From: Dickeya dadantii NCPPB 898
GTDB lineage: Bacteria; Pseudomonadota; Gammaproteobacteria; Enterobacterales; Enterobacteriaceae
Length of the DNA stretch: 32,000 nt
Direction of reading: 5' to 3'
Assembly (NCBI RefSeq): GCF_000406145.1
Contig: NZ_CM001976.1
Span: 2,012,161-2,044,160, forward strand
Made by a program: the position numbers and the translations under genes. Of the stretch, positions 1 to 29,572 are shown in pieces (positions within the stretch are counted from its first letter, which is position 1; every line of letters begins with the position of its first letter). The notes below the pieces were generated by a model. The model was not told the DNA's origin. It ran no database searches and worked only from the letters and a program-made list of their open reading frames with translations.

Positions 1-852
1 TTGTTGGTAGTAATCATTCCAGTCGGCTTTTTCAGTGGTGGGCGGGAGCGCGACCCAACCGTTTACCGCCAGTGCCGCTTTTTCAGCCGCGATTTTTCCC
101 GTGTTGTTACCATCGGGTTTACGATCATTATCCGCAGCAAGGATGATTTTGGCATCCGGCCAGACAGCACGGCAAGACCGCGCAACGTGAATCAGATTCC
201 CGCTATCTAATGCGCTGATAGCGACACCTTGCATCAGTAACGATGCCGTAATTGCCGTGGCGTAACCTTCGGCAATGATCACTGTGTCCGTGTGTTCAGG
301 TAGGGTATTAACGGGAATGAATGCACCTTTCTTGCGGCTACCGGCAATCAACTTTTTCTCGCCATTAGGTTTGATTAGCTGTGCGCCGGTGGGAGTGCTA
401 CCCATGTTTTGCAGCACCAGCAACAGAGAACCATCATCTAAGAGTAGTGAGGATCGTTGCAGCCCCTTATTCAGCAGATAGGCAGATTGGCCGGATACCG
501 CTTTCGACACCAGCGAATTCACCCGTTTGATAATCGTGCGATTATCAGGCTTCTCACTGGCGGGCGTAACGACCGGCAACGGAAGCGCCAGCACCTCAGC
601 GACCTGTTCCGCTGCTTGTCTCGCGCCACACTTATTCACTTTCATCACCAGATTTAGTCCGGTTCCTGCACCGCAGTGAGAACAAAAATAGGTGCCTCGA
701 CCTTCTTTATCGTCAAAACGGTAGCGGGTATTCCCGCCACAGTTGGGACATTCACTTTCCTGCCGATTGGTCGGGATGCCTAACCGCTGCAAAATCCCCT
801 CCCAATGGTCGTTGGCTTTTGTCCGCACGTCTTGAATAAACGTGTTGCTCAT
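1..852 (-). CDS. P4 alpha-type DNA primase, N-terminal part (zinc ribbon + Toprim); 3' end beyond the left window edge
   Basis: Absent from the ORF track because it runs off the edge. My translation from the ATG at 852 reads MSNTFIQDVRTKANDHWEGILQRLGIPTNRQESECPNCGGNTRYRFDDKEGRGTYFCSHCGAGTG. This is a CxxC...CxxC zinc ribbon. Later come TVIIAEGYATA and ILAADND, the Toprim Glu and DxD. The frame stays open to position 1. The start forms an ATGA overlap with the upstream ORF. Confidence 0.8.
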   Translation of the reverse strand, partial: MSNTFIQDVRTKANDHWEGILQRLGIPTNRQESECPNCGGNTRYRFDDKEGRGTYFCSHCGAGTGLNLVMKVNKCGARQAAEQVAEVLALPLPVVTPASEKPDNRTIIKRVNSLVSKAVSGQSAYLLNKGLQRSSLLLDDGSLLLVLQNMGSTPTGAQLIKPNGEKKLIAGSRKKGAFIPVNTLPEHTDTVIIAEGYATAITASLLMQGVAISALDSGNLIHVARSCRAVWPDAKIILAADNDRKPDGNNTGKIAAEKAALAVNGWVALPPTTEKADWNDYYQQ

Positions 853-1945: not shown

Positions 1946-2050
1946 AGCGATATACCTCATCAATGACCGGTCGTATCCGGTCGATGAGGCTATTCAATAA
2001 CAGAGTGAGGGAATTGGCATCGCAACGAAAAATAGATTTTCGCTGCAAAT

Positions 2051-2935
2051 TTAACAGTTTGATTTATAAAACTTATTCGATTCTGAAAAGTAGTTATCCA
2101 GAGTGCGGCTTTTGATGTTCTCCGTATTCTCGACTATTTCTAGCTTCAAGCTATCTTGTGTCCATCTTTTTGATTTGGTCGATGTATTTTTTAGTGCATC
2201 AATAATCGCGCCAATAACGAAAAGGCTTTCATTCAGATTGAGATCGGTATATTCATCCAACTGCTGCTTTTCAAATTGCTCAATATTTACGCGACGAAAT
2301 ACAAATTCGACATCACGTAACCCATCTGCGGGATAAAACGATGAGTGATAATTATCTGGTGTTACGAATTCTTTTCTTTTTTCATCAAATAATCTTAGCT
2401 TTCCTGCATCATCCATTTTGTATCCAACAGCTTTCTCAATGAAAGGTTCGACTATGCTGATATATCGTTCGTCATCAATTAAAAATGGTCCATCCAGATT
2501 AATAAAGGTTGCTGGCTCTCTTCCTTGGTGAATAGAACAAAGATGCAAAACATCCAATACTTCAGCCCCTATCATCGGTAGATCATAGATGCCTGTTTCA
2601 AGGCGAAACACTTCCCCATATCGAGACATGCGTATAGGCATCCTATTTGATATTGTCTCAAGTGCATCATCCAACACATGAGGATTTTCCTTAAGCATTC
2701 CTTTCTCTAATAAGAATTCGTTAAACCCTGCTAAAAGATCTTTGCTAAGAGGGCTCTTTTTTTCAGCCCACATACCATAGCGATTTTTTTCTATTAACGC
2801 TGAAATGATGATGTGACCATCAAGTGCAAGTTGAAGACAGTCTGCAATGGATACTTCTTCCTGAAAGCTGGTGGTCAGTCTGCGGGCGGTTTCTTCTAAT
2901 GTTAACCACTCTTTGAGCTTAAACAGCTTTTTCAT
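2051..2935 (-). CDS. Orphan 294-aa protein of unknown function, strongly AT-rich, in the int-alpA slot
   Basis: Clean 885-nt ORF with GGGAG 5 nt before the ATG. Spot GC of 37-40% compares with about 60% in the adjacent int. The N-terminus (KEWLTLEETARRLTTSFQEEVSIADCLQLALDG) looks HTH-like. By eye there is no TM segment, P-loop or nuclease/kinase motif. Confidence 0.8.
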   Translation of the reverse strand: MKKLFKLKEWLTLEETARRLTTSFQEEVSIADCLQLALDGHIIISALIEKNRYGMWAEKKSPLSKDLLAGFNEFLLEKGMLKENPHVLDDALETISNRMPIRMSRYGEVFRLETGIYDLPMIGAEVLDVLHLCSIHQGREPATFINLDGPFLIDDERYISIVEPFIEKAVGYKMDDAGKLRLFDEKRKEFVTPDNYHSSFYPADGLRDVEFVFRRVNIEQFEKQQLDEYTDLNLNESLFVIGAIIDALKNTSTKSKRWTQDSLKLEIVENTENIKSRTLDNYFSESNKFYKSNC

Positions 2936-3028: not shown

Positions 3029-3082
3029 ATTTTAGGAGGGCAATTAACAGGAATCAATAATTAACTGTATATAAATACAGTG
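3029..3082 (-). promoter_or_regulatory. Predicted SOS-regulated promoter of the orphan gene: LexA box plus sigma70 -35/-10
   Basis: AACTGTATATAAATACAGTG at 3063-3082 has the CTGT-N8-ACAG core and matches the E. coli LexA consensus TACTGTATATATATACAGTA at 17/20 positions. On the minus strand TTGATT (3057-3052), a 17-bp spacer and TAAAAT (3034-3029) follow. Confidence 0.6.
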
Positions 3083-4333
3083 TCAGCTATTGGCGATGCG
3101 TAATCCTCTGGCTCCTTCCGACGCCATGACTTTTCCCGTTGCGGCTGTTTCCACAAATTCCCCCCACCAGCACATCAATACCTTGCGTTGTTCCAGATAG
3201 GTGGAGCGGTTATAGGCGCGGCGTACTTCGTTAGTATCAACGTGGGCGAGGGCGGCTTCGATCACGTCTGGCGAGAAGCCTTCTTCATTGGCGGCGGTGC
3301 TGAATATGGCGCGTAGGCCGTGGGATACCAGCACGCCTTTGTACCCCATACGGCGCAGTGCGGCGTTAGCGGTCTGGCTGTTCATCGGCTGCTTAGGGTC
3401 TTTACTGGAAGGAAACAGGTATTCCCGGTGGCCGCTGATGGGCTTCATGGCGTCCAAAATGGCTAATGCCTGCGGGGGCAGGGGAATAACATGCTCACGG
3501 CGCATCTTCATGCGGCCGGCGGGGATTGTCCAGGTATTCTCTGTAAGGTTTATCTCGCTCCAGCGGGTTTCAGCGGCTTCGGCAGGGCGGGTAACGGTCA
3601 GTAATTGCCATTCGATCAATAAACGAGTCTGTAGCTCTATGCTGGCGACCGATAGCGTTTTCATCAGGCCAGGTAATGCCTCTGGCCGGATAGTCGGCAT
3701 ATGGGTTTTCACCGGCGTCTGAAACGCTTTGCGGATCTTCGCCGCCGGGTTAGCCGGTATCAGGCCGGAATTAACGGCATAGTCCATCACTTCGTTAATC
3801 CGCTGGCTTACCCGCTTGACGGTTTCCAGTTTGCCGCTGGCCTGTATCGGTTCCAGCGCGGTGATGAAGTGACGAGCGGTAAGCTGGGTGATCGGTAAGG
3901 TTCCGATGAACGGGAAGACGTATTTTTCCAACGAACGCCAGATATCTTTAATGGTGTTCTCGGCCAGAGGTTGGGATTTTTTCACTTCGTACCAGTCAGC
4001 GGAGACTTTGGCGAACGTGTTTAGGTTGATGGCTTGCTCTTGTTCGCGCTGCTGTTGCTGGTGGAATTGCGGATCGATGCCTTTACTTATCAGCGCCTTT
4101 GCTGCTTCACGCCGCTGTCGGGCTTCGGCCAAAGAAACCGCTGGGAATGAACCAAAGCTGATTAATGCACGTTTCTTCGTATCAGGGCGGTAATAATTAA
4201 AGCGCCAGATTTTAGAGCCGCTCGGTTTCACCAGCAGATACAACCCATCCCCGTCCTGTAGCGTGTATTCCTTTTCGGCAGGTTTGGCGGCTTTGATCTC
4301 GGTATTGGTCAGTGGTGTAGTTATACGAGCCAT
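3083..4333 (-). CDS. int: P4-type tyrosine recombinase/integrase (DUF4102 N-terminal arm-binding domain + catalytic domain)
   Basis: 416 aa. The N-terminus MARITTPLTNTEIKAAKPAEKEYTLQDGDGLYLLVKPSGSKIWRFNYY is the hallmark of P4-like integrases. The C-terminus has HGLRAIFST...LAHVDTNEVRRAYNRSTY (HxxR ... Y). The gene is adjacent to a tRNA 3' end. Confidence 0.95.
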   Translation of the reverse strand: MARITTPLTNTEIKAAKPAEKEYTLQDGDGLYLLVKPSGSKIWRFNYYRPDTKKRALISFGSFPAVSLAEARQRREAAKALISKGIDPQFHQQQQREQEQAINLNTFAKVSADWYEVKKSQPLAENTIKDIWRSLEKYVFPFIGTLPITQLTARHFITALEPIQASGKLETVKRVSQRINEVMDYAVNSGLIPANPAAKIRKAFQTPVKTHMPTIRPEALPGLMKTLSVASIELQTRLLIEWQLLTVTRPAEAAETRWSEINLTENTWTIPAGRMKMRREHVIPLPPQALAILDAMKPISGHREYLFPSSKDPKQPMNSQTANAALRRMGYKGVLVSHGLRAIFSTAANEEGFSPDVIEAALAHVDTNEVRRAYNRSTYLEQRKVLMCWWGEFVETAATGKVMASEGARGLRIANS

Positions 4334-4387
4334 CGTAGTTATACGCTTTTGTAGTTATATGGGGCGGTATAACTAAGCGTATAACTA
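4318..4387. repeat. Five copies of the 8-bp motif TAGTTATA / TATAACTA around the int start and int promoter (candidate Int arm-type or regulator sites)
   Basis: TAGTTATA(C/T) occurs on the plus strand at 4318, 4336 and 4352. The inverted form TATAACTA occurs at 4368 and 4380. A minus-strand TTTACA-17 bp-TACGCT promoter (4404-4376) overlaps the two inverted copies. Confidence 0.6.
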
Positions 4388-4432
4388 AACTTTCCGGCTG
4401 TAAACGGGGTATCCCGATAGATAACAGGCAAC

Positions 4433-4463
4433 AAAAAAAACCGCAAACTCAGTGAGAATGCGG
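4433..4463 (-). terminator. Rho-independent terminator downstream of tRNA-Pro
   Basis: The minus strand reads CCGCAttCTCactGAGttTGCGG followed by T8 (A8 at 4433-4440 on the plus strand). Confidence 0.7.
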
Positions 4464-4511
4464 GTTCTTGTGGGGTTTCCGGTAGTAAACGATACTAACC
4501 GAATATGTATT

Positions 4512-4588
4512 TGGTCGGCACGAGAGGATTTGAACCTCCGACCCCCGACACCCCATGACGGTGCGCTACCAGGCTGCGCTACGTGCCG
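4512..4588 (-). tRNA. proL: tRNA-Pro (anticodon GGG)
   Basis: The reverse complement is CGGCACGTAGCGCAGCCTGGTAGCGCACCGTCATGGGGTGTCGGGGGTCGGAGGTTCAAATCCTCTCGTGCCGACCA. This gives a 77-nt cloverleaf: 7-bp acceptor stem CGGCACG/CGTGCCG, anticodon loop AUGGGGU, T-loop TTCAAAT, encoded CCA. It matches my recollection of E. coli proL and sits downstream of yejM as in E. coli. Confidence 0.95.
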
Positions 4589-19143: not shown

Positions 19144-20169
19144 TCAATGCGCCTTACCTGGGTCAAAGGCGTCGCGAACCGCTTCGCCGATAAAGATAAG
19201 CAGTGACAGCACCACCGCCAGCACCATAAAGACCGTGATGCCAAGCCACGGCGCCTGTAGATTATTTTTCCCTTCCAGCAGCAGGCCGCCGAGCGAGGCG
19301 GACCCCATCGGCAGACCAAACCCCAGAAAGTCGAGCGAGGTCAGGGTGGTGATGGAACCGCAGAGAATGAACGGCAGATAGGTGAGGGTGGCGACCATGG
19401 CGTTGGGCAGCATGCAGCGAAACATGATGGACCGGTCGCTGACGCCCATCGTCTGTGCCGCGCGGATATAGTCAAAATTGCGGGTACGCAGGAATTCGGC
19501 CCGCACCACGCCGACCAGCGCCATCCAGCCAAACAGTACGGTAATGCCTAGCAGCCACCAGAAGTTCGGCTGAATTACGCTGGAGAGCAGGATAATCAAA
19601 AACAGCGTCGGCATACCGGACCAGACTTCGATAAGGCGCTGTCCCCACAGGTCTACGCGTCCGCCGTAATACCCCTGAGACGCACCTACTACGATGCCAA
19701 TCAGGCTGGACAACAGTGTCAGCGCCAGCCCGAACAGAATGGAAATACGAAAGCCATACAGCACCTGCGCCAGCACGTCGCGCCCCTGACTGTCGGTGCC
19801 GAGCAGATTCTGGCGCGACGGCGGCGACGGAAACGCGCTCTGGGTGGCGTAGTTGATGGTGTCGTAGCGGTAGTGAATCAGCGGCCACAACGCCCAGCCG
19901 CCTTGTTCCAGCCGCTGCACTAACCAGGGATCGCGGTAATCGGCCGGCGTCGCCAACTGGCCGCCGAAGGTAGTTTCGCTGTAATCCACCATAACCGGCG
20001 CGTACCACTGCCCGTCGTAGCGCACCAGCAACGGTTTGTCGTTGGCGACCAGCTCAGAGCACAGGGTAACGACAAACAGCGCCAGAAAAACCCACAGCGA
20101 CCAGTAACCACGACGATTAGCGCGAAAACGTGCCCAACGCGCCTGATTGATAGGGCTTAGACGGCTCAT
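19144..20169 (-). CDS. yejE: ABC transporter permease YejE
   Basis: 341 aa, [26 protein letters not shown]..., the same length as E. coli YejE and close to it in sequence. Confidence 0.95.
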
Positions 20170-27311: not shown

Positions 27312-28079
27312 TCACTCATCTGGTGTGTCCATTTTCAGCAGATACTGATTGCATTCATCTACGCAGAGCCTCAGCGCTGTTTCAATTTCATTTCTGTGCG
27401 AATGAAACCTGTGGGTGGGAACCACTACGGATATGGCGAGATTAAGCCCACCCCAGATACGGAGTGGTAGGCCAATGGCGCATGAATCTACAGCATGCTC
27501 TTCTCTATCGTAGGCGAACCCACCAGCCCGAATAGCGTTAAGTTGTTTCACTAAGTCGTCGACATTGACCACTGAATTGGGCGTTATTCTTTCCAGCATG
27601 CCGGATCCATAGCGGTTATGAATTTCACGGTCGGAAAGGGTGGAAAGCAATGCTTTGCCGTTTGCCATTGTGTACGCGGGGTATCTGACCCGTATATCAG
27701 GTACGGCGCGGATACGCTGCTCAGAAAGAAAACGATCCATAAACAAAACGGATGTCCCATCTAGTGTTGATAAATCAACGGTCTCTTTTGTTCTTTCATA
27801 TAAGCGATAAAGTAAAGGGCGAAGGTTATGAGAGGGTTCTGGATTGGATATTTCCCCCAAACGTCTCAACCCCCAACCAGGGCGTACCCCTTTTGCTCCG
27901 GCCTGTACCAGGTGTTCACCTTCAAGCGCATCCACAATTCTCTGAACAGTGGATCTGGCAAGCCCCGTCAATGATGCAATCTGTCCCAGACTGAGGCCGT
28001 CAGGGCTCTCACAGATTTCACGTAAAATAGCCGCCGCTCGCGATATAACCTGGATACCGCCTCTCGATTTTTCAATCAT
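27312..28079 (-). CDS. IclR-family transcriptional regulator
   Basis: 255 aa. The N-terminal wHTH is VISRAAAILREICESPDGLSLGQIASLTGLARSTVQRIVDALEGEHLV and a C-terminal IclR effector-binding domain follows. GC is low, and the gene is divergent from the amidohydrolase gene. Confidence 0.9.
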   Translation of the reverse strand: MIEKSRGGIQVISRAAAILREICESPDGLSLGQIASLTGLARSTVQRIVDALEGEHLVQAGAKGVRPGWGLRRLGEISNPEPSHNLRPLLYRLYERTKETVDLSTLDGTSVLFMDRFLSEQRIRAVPDIRVRYPAYTMANGKALLSTLSDREIHNRYGSGMLERITPNSVVNVDDLVKQLNAIRAGGFAYDREEHAVDSCAIGLPLRIWGGLNLAISVVVPTHRFHSHRNEIETALRLCVDECNQYLLKMDTPDE

Positions 28080-28092
28080 AACAACCCACCCT

Positions 28093-28133
28093 GTATCATA
28101 TCGTGGTACAGTAACTGTATTGCATTGTGATAC
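28093..28133. promoter_or_regulatory. Nested 41-bp inverted repeat in the IclR/amidohydrolase divergent promoter (candidate IclR operator)
   Basis: GTATCA-N8-TACAG-taa-CTGTA-N8-TGATAC, fully symmetric in arms and spacers, read directly from the sequence. Confidence 0.45.
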
Positions 28134-28234
28134 ACTGCATGTGTTAAATACCAGTAATTATGCTTTTTAATCTACGCATGCTGGCATGCCGCTAGATTGC
28201 TTTTAACAAATTAAATTGTAAAGGATGCAATAGC

Positions 28235-29572
28235 ATGAAACTTAACTCTGCATTATGTCTCATAATGTCAATGAATTATTTATCGAATGTTGCCTATGCA
28301 TTTGATATCCAGAAGGCTAGCAAGGCGACAGATAGCTATCTCGATATCAATTATTCTCAACTGGATAACTTATACAAAGATATTCATCAAAATCCTGAAC
28401 TCGGGTATCAGGAAGTCAGAACGACTAAAATACTTGCTAATAATATGCGTAAGATTGGTTTTCAGGTGATGGATAATCTCGGCGGCACAGGATTTGTTGC
28501 TATATACAAAAATGGTGATGGGCCAACCGTAATGGTGAGAACTGAACTGGATGCGCTTCCCATGCAGGAAAAAACCGGTTTGCCGTACGCAAGTAAGGTA
28601 AAGCAGAAAGATCAAGATGGGAAAGAGACATATGTTGCGCACTCCTGCGGCCATGATATACACATGGCATCCTGGTTCGGGAGCGCCTCCGCACTGATTA
28701 ACATGAAGGATCAGTGGCAAGGAACCCTGATGTTTGTCGCCCAGCCGGCTGAGGAAAAAATTACTGGCGCAAGTGCAATGGTCAACGATGGTATTTTCAA
28801 AAAATTCGGCAAACCGGACTATGCATTCGCATTACATACTTCACCGATGGAATACGGACTTGTTTCCTTTAAGCCCGGAGTTCAGACCTCCAACGGCGAT
28901 TCATTCTCTATTACTTTTAAAGGAAAAGGCGGCCATGGTTCAATGCCGGAAAAAACCATCGATCCTATTTTGATTGCCGCAAGGTTCGTTACCGATGTAC
29001 AGACATTGATTAGTCGAGAAACCTCTCCTAACAAATTCGGCGTTGTAACTATTGGTGCATTTAATTCAGGGACATCCGGCAATATTATTCCTGATATGGC
29101 AAAAATACAGGGAACGCTGCGTACCTACGATGATAATGTACGTAAGAACTTAATTGATGGCATTGCCCGTTTTGCGAAAGCATCCGCGGATATGTCTAAG
29201 GCACCACTCCCGGAAATAATAATTGGTGAAAATAAGGTGGATTCAATTGTTAATGATAGTTCTCTATCAGAATCTACCGCTAAAGTGTTTAAGGAGCGAT
29301 TTGGCAACCATTTTACGGAAGCTAAAGAACCTAGCTCCGCCAGTGAAGATTTTTCTGTATTCGTCAATGCTGGAATTCCTGCCGTGTATTTTAATATTGG
29401 CATATATTCTCCAGAGCAGATTAAACAATGGGAGCGCGAAGGTGTTGAAATACCCAGCAACCATTCTCCTCTGTTTGCACCAGTGCCAGAGCCGACTATT
29501 CGCACGGGAGTTGAAGCCATGACGCTAGCTGTAATGAATGCTTTAGATAACAATGTCGGGAAAAAGTTATAA
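28235..29572 (+). CDS. M20D-family amidohydrolase (aminoacylase/hippurate hydrolase/ILR1-like), possibly exported
   Basis: 445 aa. ...VRTELDALPMQE...AHSCGHDIHMA...FVAQPAEE...GKGGHGSMPEKTIDPI... are signatures of the M20D aminoacylase family. The N-terminus MKLNSALCLIMSMNYLSNVAYA/FD looks like a Sec signal peptide. Spot GC is about 37%. Confidence 0.9.
   Translation: MKLNSALCLIMSMNYLSNVAYAFDIQKASKATDSYLDINYSQLDNLYKDIHQNPELGYQEVRTTKILANNMRKIGFQVMDNLGGTGFVAIYKNGDGPTVMVRTELDALPMQEKTGLPYASKVKQKDQDGKETYVAHSCGHDIHMASWFGSASALINMKDQWQGTLMFVAQPAEEKITGASAMVNDGIFKKFGKPDYAFALHTSPMEYGLVSFKPGVQTSNGDSFSITFKGKGGHGSMPEKTIDPILIAARFVTDVQTLISRETSPNKFGVVTIGAFNSGTSGNIIPDMAKIQGTLRTYDDNVRKNLIDGIARFAKASADMSKAPLPEIIIGENKVDSIVNDSSLSESTAKVFKERFGNHFTEAKEPSSASEDFSVFVNAGIPAVYFNIGIYSPEQIKQWEREGVEIPSNHSPLFAPVPEPTIRTGVEAMTLAVMNALDNNVGKKL

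Follow-up and report, generated by a model that had tools for sequence, protein, structure and literature searches.

This report concerns a gene, here called X, that encodes a protein of 294 amino acids (aa) at positions 2051-2935 (minus strand) of a 32,000 nucleotide (nt) stretch of the Dickeya dadantii NCPPB 898 genome (contig NZ_CM001976.1). We refer to the whole 32,000 nt stretch as the window, and use L-numbers for homologous or compared genome loci. X lies in a genomic island integrated at a tRNA-Pro gene, between the gene for a P4-type tyrosine integrase (int) and alpA. In Gram-negative islands of the phage-inducible chromosomal island (PICI) type, AlpA acts as master activator of both excision and replication. 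From comparative genomics, we put the odds at about even that X encodes a regulator that the island itself supplies and that binds DNA sequence-specifically at the alpA promoter. Since AlpA is the master activator, such a regulator would decide when the island switches on.

The evidence starts immediately downstream of X. Two palindromes, with sequence T(T/C)GCnGCGA, were recognised from the sequence and alignments, and are proposed operators. They are named O1 (2040-2049) and O2 (2020-2029), and the pair (2020-2049) is assigned to neither strand. The two palindromes are 20 base pairs (bp) apart and, jointly, form a 13+3+13 inverted repeat that begins 2 bp past the X stop codon. Among Enterobacterales, the TCGCnGCGA pair is near-invariant and is followed by an invariant ATGAC, despite X proteins that share 45-60% identity and AlpA proteins that differ. 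In other lineages the architecture is kept and the palindromes are different ones, including CCGAATTCGG, CCGCAATTGCGG, GCCAGTTGGC, GGCAGTTGCC and CCTAATTAGG. To count such pairs, we required units of at least 10 nt, with at most 1 mismatch, placed 18-25 bp apart and no more than 70 bp after the stop codon. Repeat pairs were found in 27 of 48 non-redundant loci. The equivalent numbers for controls were 1 of 47 regions upstream of X and 0 of 240 shuffled sequences. The spacing was 20-21 bp in 26 of the 27 loci, with a unit length of 8-14 bp.

The motif appears to track the C-terminal domain of X rather than AlpA. Over 30 loci, the last 45 aa of X are 40% identical within a motif class and 22% identical between classes (ratio 1.81). 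For AlpA, the N-terminus of X and its middle part, this ratio is 1.15, 1.21 and 1.17, respectively. After controlling for the rest of the protein, a partial Mantel test gave r = 0.46, a value reached in 0 of 5000 permutations; the reverse test gave r = 0.08. We considered AlpA as the protein that binds the palindromes and rejected it on two comparisons. First, the AlpA proteins of L070 and L071 are 94% identical, and L070 has the TCGCnGCGA pair where L071 has two TTTCAATAGATT direct repeats. Second, AlpA of the window and of L001 are only 20% identical and the motif is identical. In silico, the arrangement looks like that of an immunity regulator, with paired candidate operators at an early-gene promoter that covary with the putative regulator.

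The preliminary description of the window, made from the sequence alone, had supposed that the slot between int and alpA is a variable position. The slot is indeed exchangeable, but apparently as a cassette. An integrase 80-90% identical in DNA to that of L001, at the yicC site, occurs in 383 of 5,426 complete E. coli genomes. In L070, an E. coli yicC island, the slot holds a 293-aa X homologue that is 45% identical to the window protein. In L071 and L072, an unrelated 216-aa gene takes its place. Homology between L070 and L071 ends at the int stop codon and returns approximately 36 bp before the alpA ATG. The cassettes without X have TTTCAATAGATT-like direct repeats, 21-22 bp apart, upstream of alpA (L071 11255-11300; L072 11190-11240). 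Hence, this alternative cassette seems to have the same two-site architecture in a different sequence. We also considered EcCIMP1, a characterised PICI, as an example of an X-bearing island. This was rejected; the slot is 427 bp without an annotated gene. In CP4-57 of E. coli, yfjH does lie between intA and alpA, as the preliminary description stated, and is on the opposite strand. YfjH was rejected as a homologue of X (hhalign probability 0.2, E = 0.38). In the window's own lineage the int-to-alpA stretch is kept, with 88-91% nt identity to three relatives. Here, the truly variable spot seems to be 1050-1620, the 570 bp after alpA, which has no homology to the islands of three relatives, 88-92% identical elsewhere. 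An opposite-strand ORF (open reading frame) of the YlcI/YnfO family (NCBIfam E = 1e-15, PHROG 949) lies inside this region, at 1231-1590.

A different account of the repeats is that they form an RNA terminator, or insulator, between int-X and alpA. The AT-rich body of X would then serve mainly as an H-NS-type silencing platform for alpA, and the protein would have some other role, such as helper manipulation. We consider this unlikely. A 9-17 bp stem can form between the palindrome copies and, in several lineages (L040, L056 and L062), an A-run precedes and a T-run follows the repeat. However, most loci lack a U-tract, and folding energies for 34 loci are similar for the sense and antisense strands (-14.1 and -13.8 kcal/mol, p = 0.35). 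With no strand bias, the G-U signature of an RNA element is absent. Furthermore, spacing is fixed at 20-21 bp for stems and loops of varying length. This is expected for protein sites on one face of the DNA, and not for hairpins. In the cassettes without X the repeats are direct, rather than palindromic, and have the same spacing. The constant centre-to-centre distance, and these direct repeats, thus favour protein sites on DNA. With respect to silencing, H-NS acts directly on the alpA promoter of a related Shewanella element, CP4So (PMC5148205). Consistent with a silencing platform, low content of guanine and cytosine (GC) is a family-wide property of X, with third codon positions (GC3) 15 points below int.

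X is a real gene, under purifying selection. As first described, it is an 885 nt ORF with a good ribosome binding site; the Shine-Dalgarno sequence GGGAG is at 2940-2944, four nt 5' of the ATG. Its assignment draws on the ORF list, homologues, their alignment and an AlphaFold (AF2) model. The ratio of nonsynonymous to synonymous substitution rates (dN/dS) is 0.07-0.12 in comparisons with three close Pectobacterium relatives and 0.10-0.18 for five further pairs of family members. The preliminary description also remarked on the low GC content of X, set this against about 60% for the integrase, and proposed recent acquisition. The low value holds (0.38 gene-wide, 0.36-0.42 per 500-bp window) and that for the integrase is corrected to 54%. 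Note that X has a lower GC content than the adjacent integrase in 34 of the 35 loci where the homologue is full length and int is adjacent. On average, the difference is -0.09, or -0.15 at third codon positions (Wilcoxon p ~1e-10). Across homologues, GC content ranges from 0.33 to 0.58 and tracks that of the host locus (r = 0.81). Hence, the low GC content is a family trait and gives no indication of recent acquisition.

Nor is X an orphan, as it had been called. A search of 5.8 billion proteins returned 117 homologue clusters at 90% identity, all 'hypothetical' and with zero Pfam domains. An exhaustive search found 912 X-family proteins (E <= 1e-3, counted as 50%-identity representatives), none of which is named. 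Identity to X is 98% in Pectobacterium and 83% in Brenneria. It falls to 43-62% in Serratia, Salmonella, Erwinia, Citrobacter, E. coli, Yersinia, Morganella and Klebsiella, and to 25-35% in Pseudomonas, Methylobacter and Shewanella. Genome loci of the family are found in gamma-, beta-, alpha- and delta-proteobacteria, and in a few metagenome-assembled genomes of Bacteroidota. Decayed copies also occur. In L060 (Brenneria sp.), homology to the window ends 24 codons into X and the integrase is frameshifted. In L004 (Brenneria salicis), X is apparently frameshifted near codon 30-60. No paper describing the X family, or the paired motifs, was found in the literature, our coverage of which is incomplete.

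The preliminary description recognised no family for X, and we agree; the protein has zero matches in Pfam, PADLOC, NCBIfam and PHROGs. Likewise, sequence searches of the PDB, with X alone and with the family profile, gave zero matches. The AF2 model of X has a mean predicted local distance difference test (pLDDT) score of 88.5 and was built on a 34-sequence alignment. Foldseek comparison of the full model with the PDB and BFVD returned nothing significant (best E ~0.6). Thus, profile and structure searches, proposed as a check in the preliminary description, have assigned X to no known family or fold.

Three parts of the protein can be distinguished. Residues 1-60 (2756-2935) are the best conserved part of the family, with 63% mean column identity. 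This end of X had been suggested to be a helix-turn-helix (HTH) or winged HTH, for which we find no support. When 23 N-terminal fragments were compared with Pfam, neither HTH_17 nor Phage_AlpA matched at E <= 10, and the best match was HTH_Mga (E = 0.045, 2 members). Comparison of the N-terminal alignment with an AlpA alignment gave an hhalign probability of 0.3, and the top 50 Foldseek matches of the full model in the PDB include zero HTH proteins. Residues ~100-215 (2291-2638) form a beta-rich domain, with motifs YDLPMIGAE-LD and YPADGL, in which D118, M121 and G149 are invariant in the alignment. The family holds two conserved domains without detectable structural relatives. Finally, residues ~230-294 (2054-2248) form a variable, helical and HTH-like domain, with the alignment pattern 'ERNxLLxIIxAL ... 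G-x-x-(V/I)S-x-x-T(I/V)Rx-x-LK'. A model of this domain has four helices (pLDDT 78.6). Its top 30 Foldseek matches in the PDB are mostly HTH or winged-helix proteins (Fur/PerR, SlmA, PhoB and Rex), all with E > 2. Other weak matches are to the HTH of the Tc3 and Sleeping Beauty transposases (HTH_Tnp_Tc3_2) and to the sigma-54 RpoN box. Several homologues retain the N-terminus of X only, fused to a different remainder. In L050 (6683-10351), there is a short ORF for the N-terminal domain alone, 54% identical over residues 1-46. A DUF499/HEPN_Swt1 protein comes before it, and downstream is an oppositely oriented integrase, so that the N-terminal module has a different context here.

Could X be a defence gene? 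The preliminary description raised this possibility, and X would then be an accessory anti-phage gene, of the abortive infection (Abi) or another type, in the 5' slot of a PICI-like satellite, with the repeats belonging to alpA regulation and unconnected to the X protein. An accessory region with immune systems has been reported at the 5' end of PICIs (PMC11364771), in agreement with what the preliminary description had said of this region. The slot is also exchangeable among closely related E. coli islands, and X is AT-rich, has a fold without relatives and is under SOS control. Even so, we gained no evidence for defence, and think it improbable. None of the defence-protein models in PADLOC-DB 2.0 matches X (0 families at E <= 10). 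The gene is in 0 of 50,697 phage records and has one plasmid match, to a Paraburkholderia chromid. The 10 copies in IMG/VR include six on contigs of 12-38 kb, where X is ~1.1-1.6 kb from the contig end. Unlike typical defence genes, X is never outside the int/alpA context. It is strictly paired with alpA across alpha-, beta-, gamma- and delta-proteobacteria, and the cis motif goes with the X C-terminus instead of AlpA. Another early suggestion, an SOS-triggered regulatory factor, is nearer to the data than defence. Equally, X is close to being a conserved component of its islands, the alternative to variable cargo that the preliminary description had named. It is a constant companion of alpA and has cis sites of its own, but does not have the assigned role that this alternative entailed.

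The genomic setting of X was compared across 62 loci, of which 55 have enough upstream sequence and 49 have full-length homologues. In the window, the order is tRNA-Pro(GGG), integrase, X and alpA, all on the minus strand. The tRNA-Pro gene (anticodon GGG; 4512-4588; ARAGORN) is the integration target and the left end of the island. The integrase gene (3083-4333) is transcribed inward from the tRNA and matches Pfam families Arm-DNA-bind_3, Phage_int_M and Phage_integrase. The alpA gene (1730-1945; Pfam Phage_AlpA E = 1.5e-7) encodes 71 aa from an ATG at 1945, in agreement with the gene call in L066, and the longest ORF starts from a TTG at 1963. A primase gene follows, of which the 5' part (1-852, minus strand) lies in the window and the rest is cut off by the window edge. 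It was identified by comparison with L066, a close relative. Positions 2-1050 are 92% identical to 11838-12886 of L066, where the gene has Zn_Ribbon_Prim, Toprim_3 and DUF927 domains. Hence, the island has the layout of a PICI, with an inward-facing int at a specific attachment (att) site, then alpA and a primase. Downstream genes in X loci generally are of the AntA/Bro type, together with a DUF927, D5 or Toprim-DUF3987 primase.

Using a profile made from 19 AlpA sequences, we detected, in 38 of 49 loci, an AlpA-like ORF that has the orientation of X and lies 15-215 bp downstream of it. For 16 of the paired loci, no integrase was assigned to the 400 bp upstream by the automated ORF match; in at least two of these, L029 and L040, BLAST finds that an adjacent integrase is present. 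Where there is extra DNA, it lies between int and X, not between X and alpA. Examples are an IS110 element in Erwinia psidii and two large genes in L030. These observations bear on whether X is an accessory factor of the integrase, made in fixed proportion to Int and modulating integration, excision or target choice via Int or att DNA. A P4-type integrase gene is on the same strand and at most 400 bp upstream of X in 33 of 55 loci, and at most 6 kb upstream in 45. In several lineages only -8 to +18 bp separate the int stop codon from the start of X, so that the two overlap or almost abut, which suggests translational coupling. The exceptional conservation of the N-terminal 60 residues might also fit such a role. 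Conversely, X remains beside alpA where int is kilobases away or undetected. X similarity tracks the host taxon rather than the integrase type, so that X can be 54-62% identical where the integrase is 24-32% identical. In addition, X is more than 1.4 kb from the att core, and AlpA already provides an excisionase-type function in such islands (PMC6092414, PMC5148205). A role as an Int accessory factor is, in our view, the least probable of the alternatives.

Expression of X may be linked to DNA damage. The preliminary description had assigned X its own SOS-type promoter, and promoter and LexA-box scans bear this out. A promoter-like sequence, CTGACA-18-AATTAT (3057-3086, minus strand), begins inside the integrase stop codon, about 130 bp upstream of X. 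A perfect LexA box, CTGTATTTATATACAG, at 3065-3080, occupies its spacer. The box is kept in five related loci, from Pectobacterium, Brenneria and Serratia, while the flanks diverge; at the Serratia locus the integrase is only 32% identical. Considering all loci, LexA boxes are confined to the int-X spacer of about five lineages. For this reason, LexA control was rejected as a trait of the X family. We conclude that SOS control is probably real for this island, and is not family-wide.

The putative alpA promoter (1992-2020, minus strand) has a -35 element, ATGCCA, at 2015-2020, abutting O2, and a -10 element, TTGAAT, at 1992-1997, separated by 17 bp. In Enterobacterales generally, the ATGAC(A) right after O2 resembles a -35 hexamer, which would place O2 near position -39 and O1 near position -59. 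The alpA leader can also form a stem-loop (1955-1989, minus strand), identified by repeat search and folding, of which the 3' arm holds the alpA Shine-Dalgarno sequence, GAGG (1955-1958). In the window, this structure has a dG of -22.6 and a z-score of -3.8. Elsewhere, alpA leaders have hairpins of unrelated sequence, with a mean z-score of -2.5 over 37 loci, and the Shine-Dalgarno region is mostly paired in 25 of the 37. This suggests that alpA is under translational control via a leader hairpin. A CATGTTCAACAA-like motif recurs in distant loci, ~20-40 nt before the alpA start, in L009, L014, L016, L019, L029, L030, L054 and L061. In predicted folds, CATG of this motif pairs with the start-codon region of alpA.

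If X does regulate alpA, we envisage the following. The variable C-terminal domain would bind O1 and O2, with one dimer at each site. These operators, two helical turns apart (20-21 bp), start a few bases past the X stop codon and would abut the alpA -35 element. The conserved N-terminal and central domains may receive a signal or contact a conserved partner. In this island, X would be read from the LexA-box promoter, so linking DNA damage to the switch. The X gene, operators and promoter region would be swapped between islands as one cassette, much like lambdoid immunity regions. As to direction, we slightly favour activation, whereby SOS induces X and X stimulates alpA, over repression. In support of activation, X is SOS-controlled here, a -35-like ATGAC(A) follows O2, and the alpA promoter is weak. 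Pointing to repression, X resembles cI, Stl and ImmR in its position and, in other lineages, in its frequent co-translation with int.

Several considerations count against X as the regulator of alpA. The analysis shows the family, its synteny, the cis motifs and their association with the C-terminal domain; that X binds DNA, where the alpA promoter lies, whether X activates or represses and what part LexA plays are all things that we infer. Approximately 40% of loci have no clear repeat by the criterion used. Where motifs were compared with X, the grouping into motif classes was done by eye, and only 2-30 bp lie between the motif and the C-terminal codons of X, so linkage alone could yield part of the association. 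The palindrome copies also make a long inverted repeat, with the potential to be an RNA hairpin or terminator, and a T-run follows in some lineages. Assignment of the C-terminal domain as an HTH is statistically unsupported; the best Pfam match has E = 0.004 and is seen in 2 of 27 members. A consensus scan did not call the putative alpA promoter, and promoter geometry across loci is noisy and cannot separate an activator from a repressor. In EcCIMP1, alpA is regulated with no annotated gene in the slot, and X is thus not universally required. With regard to the favoured direction, an activator constantly expressed together with int would do harm. Note that AlpA overexpression leads to uncontrolled replication (PMC6092414).

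A broader proposal can be made, and we hold it with less confidence than the regulatory role itself. The X family may be an unrecognised master switch for a very large class of islands with P4-type integrases and AlpA, including Gram-negative PICI-like satellites, across Pseudomonadota. It would sense signals through N-terminal and central domains of new fold, read DNA through a variable C-terminus, and confer element-specific 'immunity' by means of swappable gene-plus-operator cassettes. Islands driven by AlpA (PICI-like satellites, CP4-57-type islands and the elements known as PIMEs) are among the commonest proteobacterial mobile elements, and carry virulence, resistance and defence genes. 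On how alpA is turned off and on in Gram-negative elements, the founding PICI paper states that there is no known master repressor. A conserved element-encoded protein, with its own candidate operators at the alpA promoter, is a concrete and cheaply testable candidate for this control point. Moreover, the alternative cassettes suggest a specificity system comparable to phage immunity.

Two further observations concern the surroundings. In L066, the primase gene is followed only by unnamed genes and ParE toxins. The ParE-type toxin genes lie before a second, partial copy of the att-proximal integrase (19227-20048), which is ~11 kb downstream and 91% identical to 3651-4491 of the window. This suggests that L066 contains an island of ~11 kb, then a remnant or tandem element. 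In the window, the composition profile has a second stretch of low GC content at 28001-29500 (0.38-0.47, against ~0.55-0.60 around it).

Among the closest known parallels to X islands are the Gram-negative PICIs, which have the same layout (PMC10111431). Like EcCICFT073 and EcCIMP1, X islands have a tRNA or yicC site, an inward int, alpA, a Bro/AntA zone and a DUF927 or P4-type primase (PMC6092414, PMC10111431, PMC11773190). The PICI papers treat int and alpA as the integration zone, with intervening genes as accessory, and describe no regulator upstream of alpA (PMC6092414, PMC10111431, PMC11773190). A second parallel is with PIMEs, in which excision and replication require a LuxR regulator encoded beside alpA (preprint 10.64898/2026.01.12.698999). 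Like this LuxR protein, X is proposed to be a second element-encoded regulator in the int-alpA region of a Pseudomonadota element with a P4 integrase and AlpA. However, the PIME regulator belongs to a different family and is divergently oriented. PIMEs also depend on conjugative plasmids and carry trb/tra genes, none of which were seen here. Like X, YfjH of CP4-57 fills the intA-alpA interval; unlike X, it is on the opposite strand and homology is undetectable (hhalign probability 0.2).

Stl of Staphylococcus aureus pathogenicity islands (SaPIs), ImmR of ICEBs1, and lambda cI with its OR operators, are master regulators encoded next to int. X differs from all three in having no sequence or fold similarity to them, and in being co-directional with alpA, not divergent. 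In addition, the putative DNA-binding domain of X is C-terminal and variable, with the remainder highly conserved, which is the reverse of the situation in Stl. The likenesses are those of position and organisation. As for Stl, ImmR and cI, X occupies the interval that separates int from the first 'early' regulator gene, and often shares a transcript with int. Similarly, we propose paired operators for X at the boundary of the early promoter. Finally, in common with immunity regions and with alleles of Stl, the X cassette comes in alternative, non-homologous specificities.

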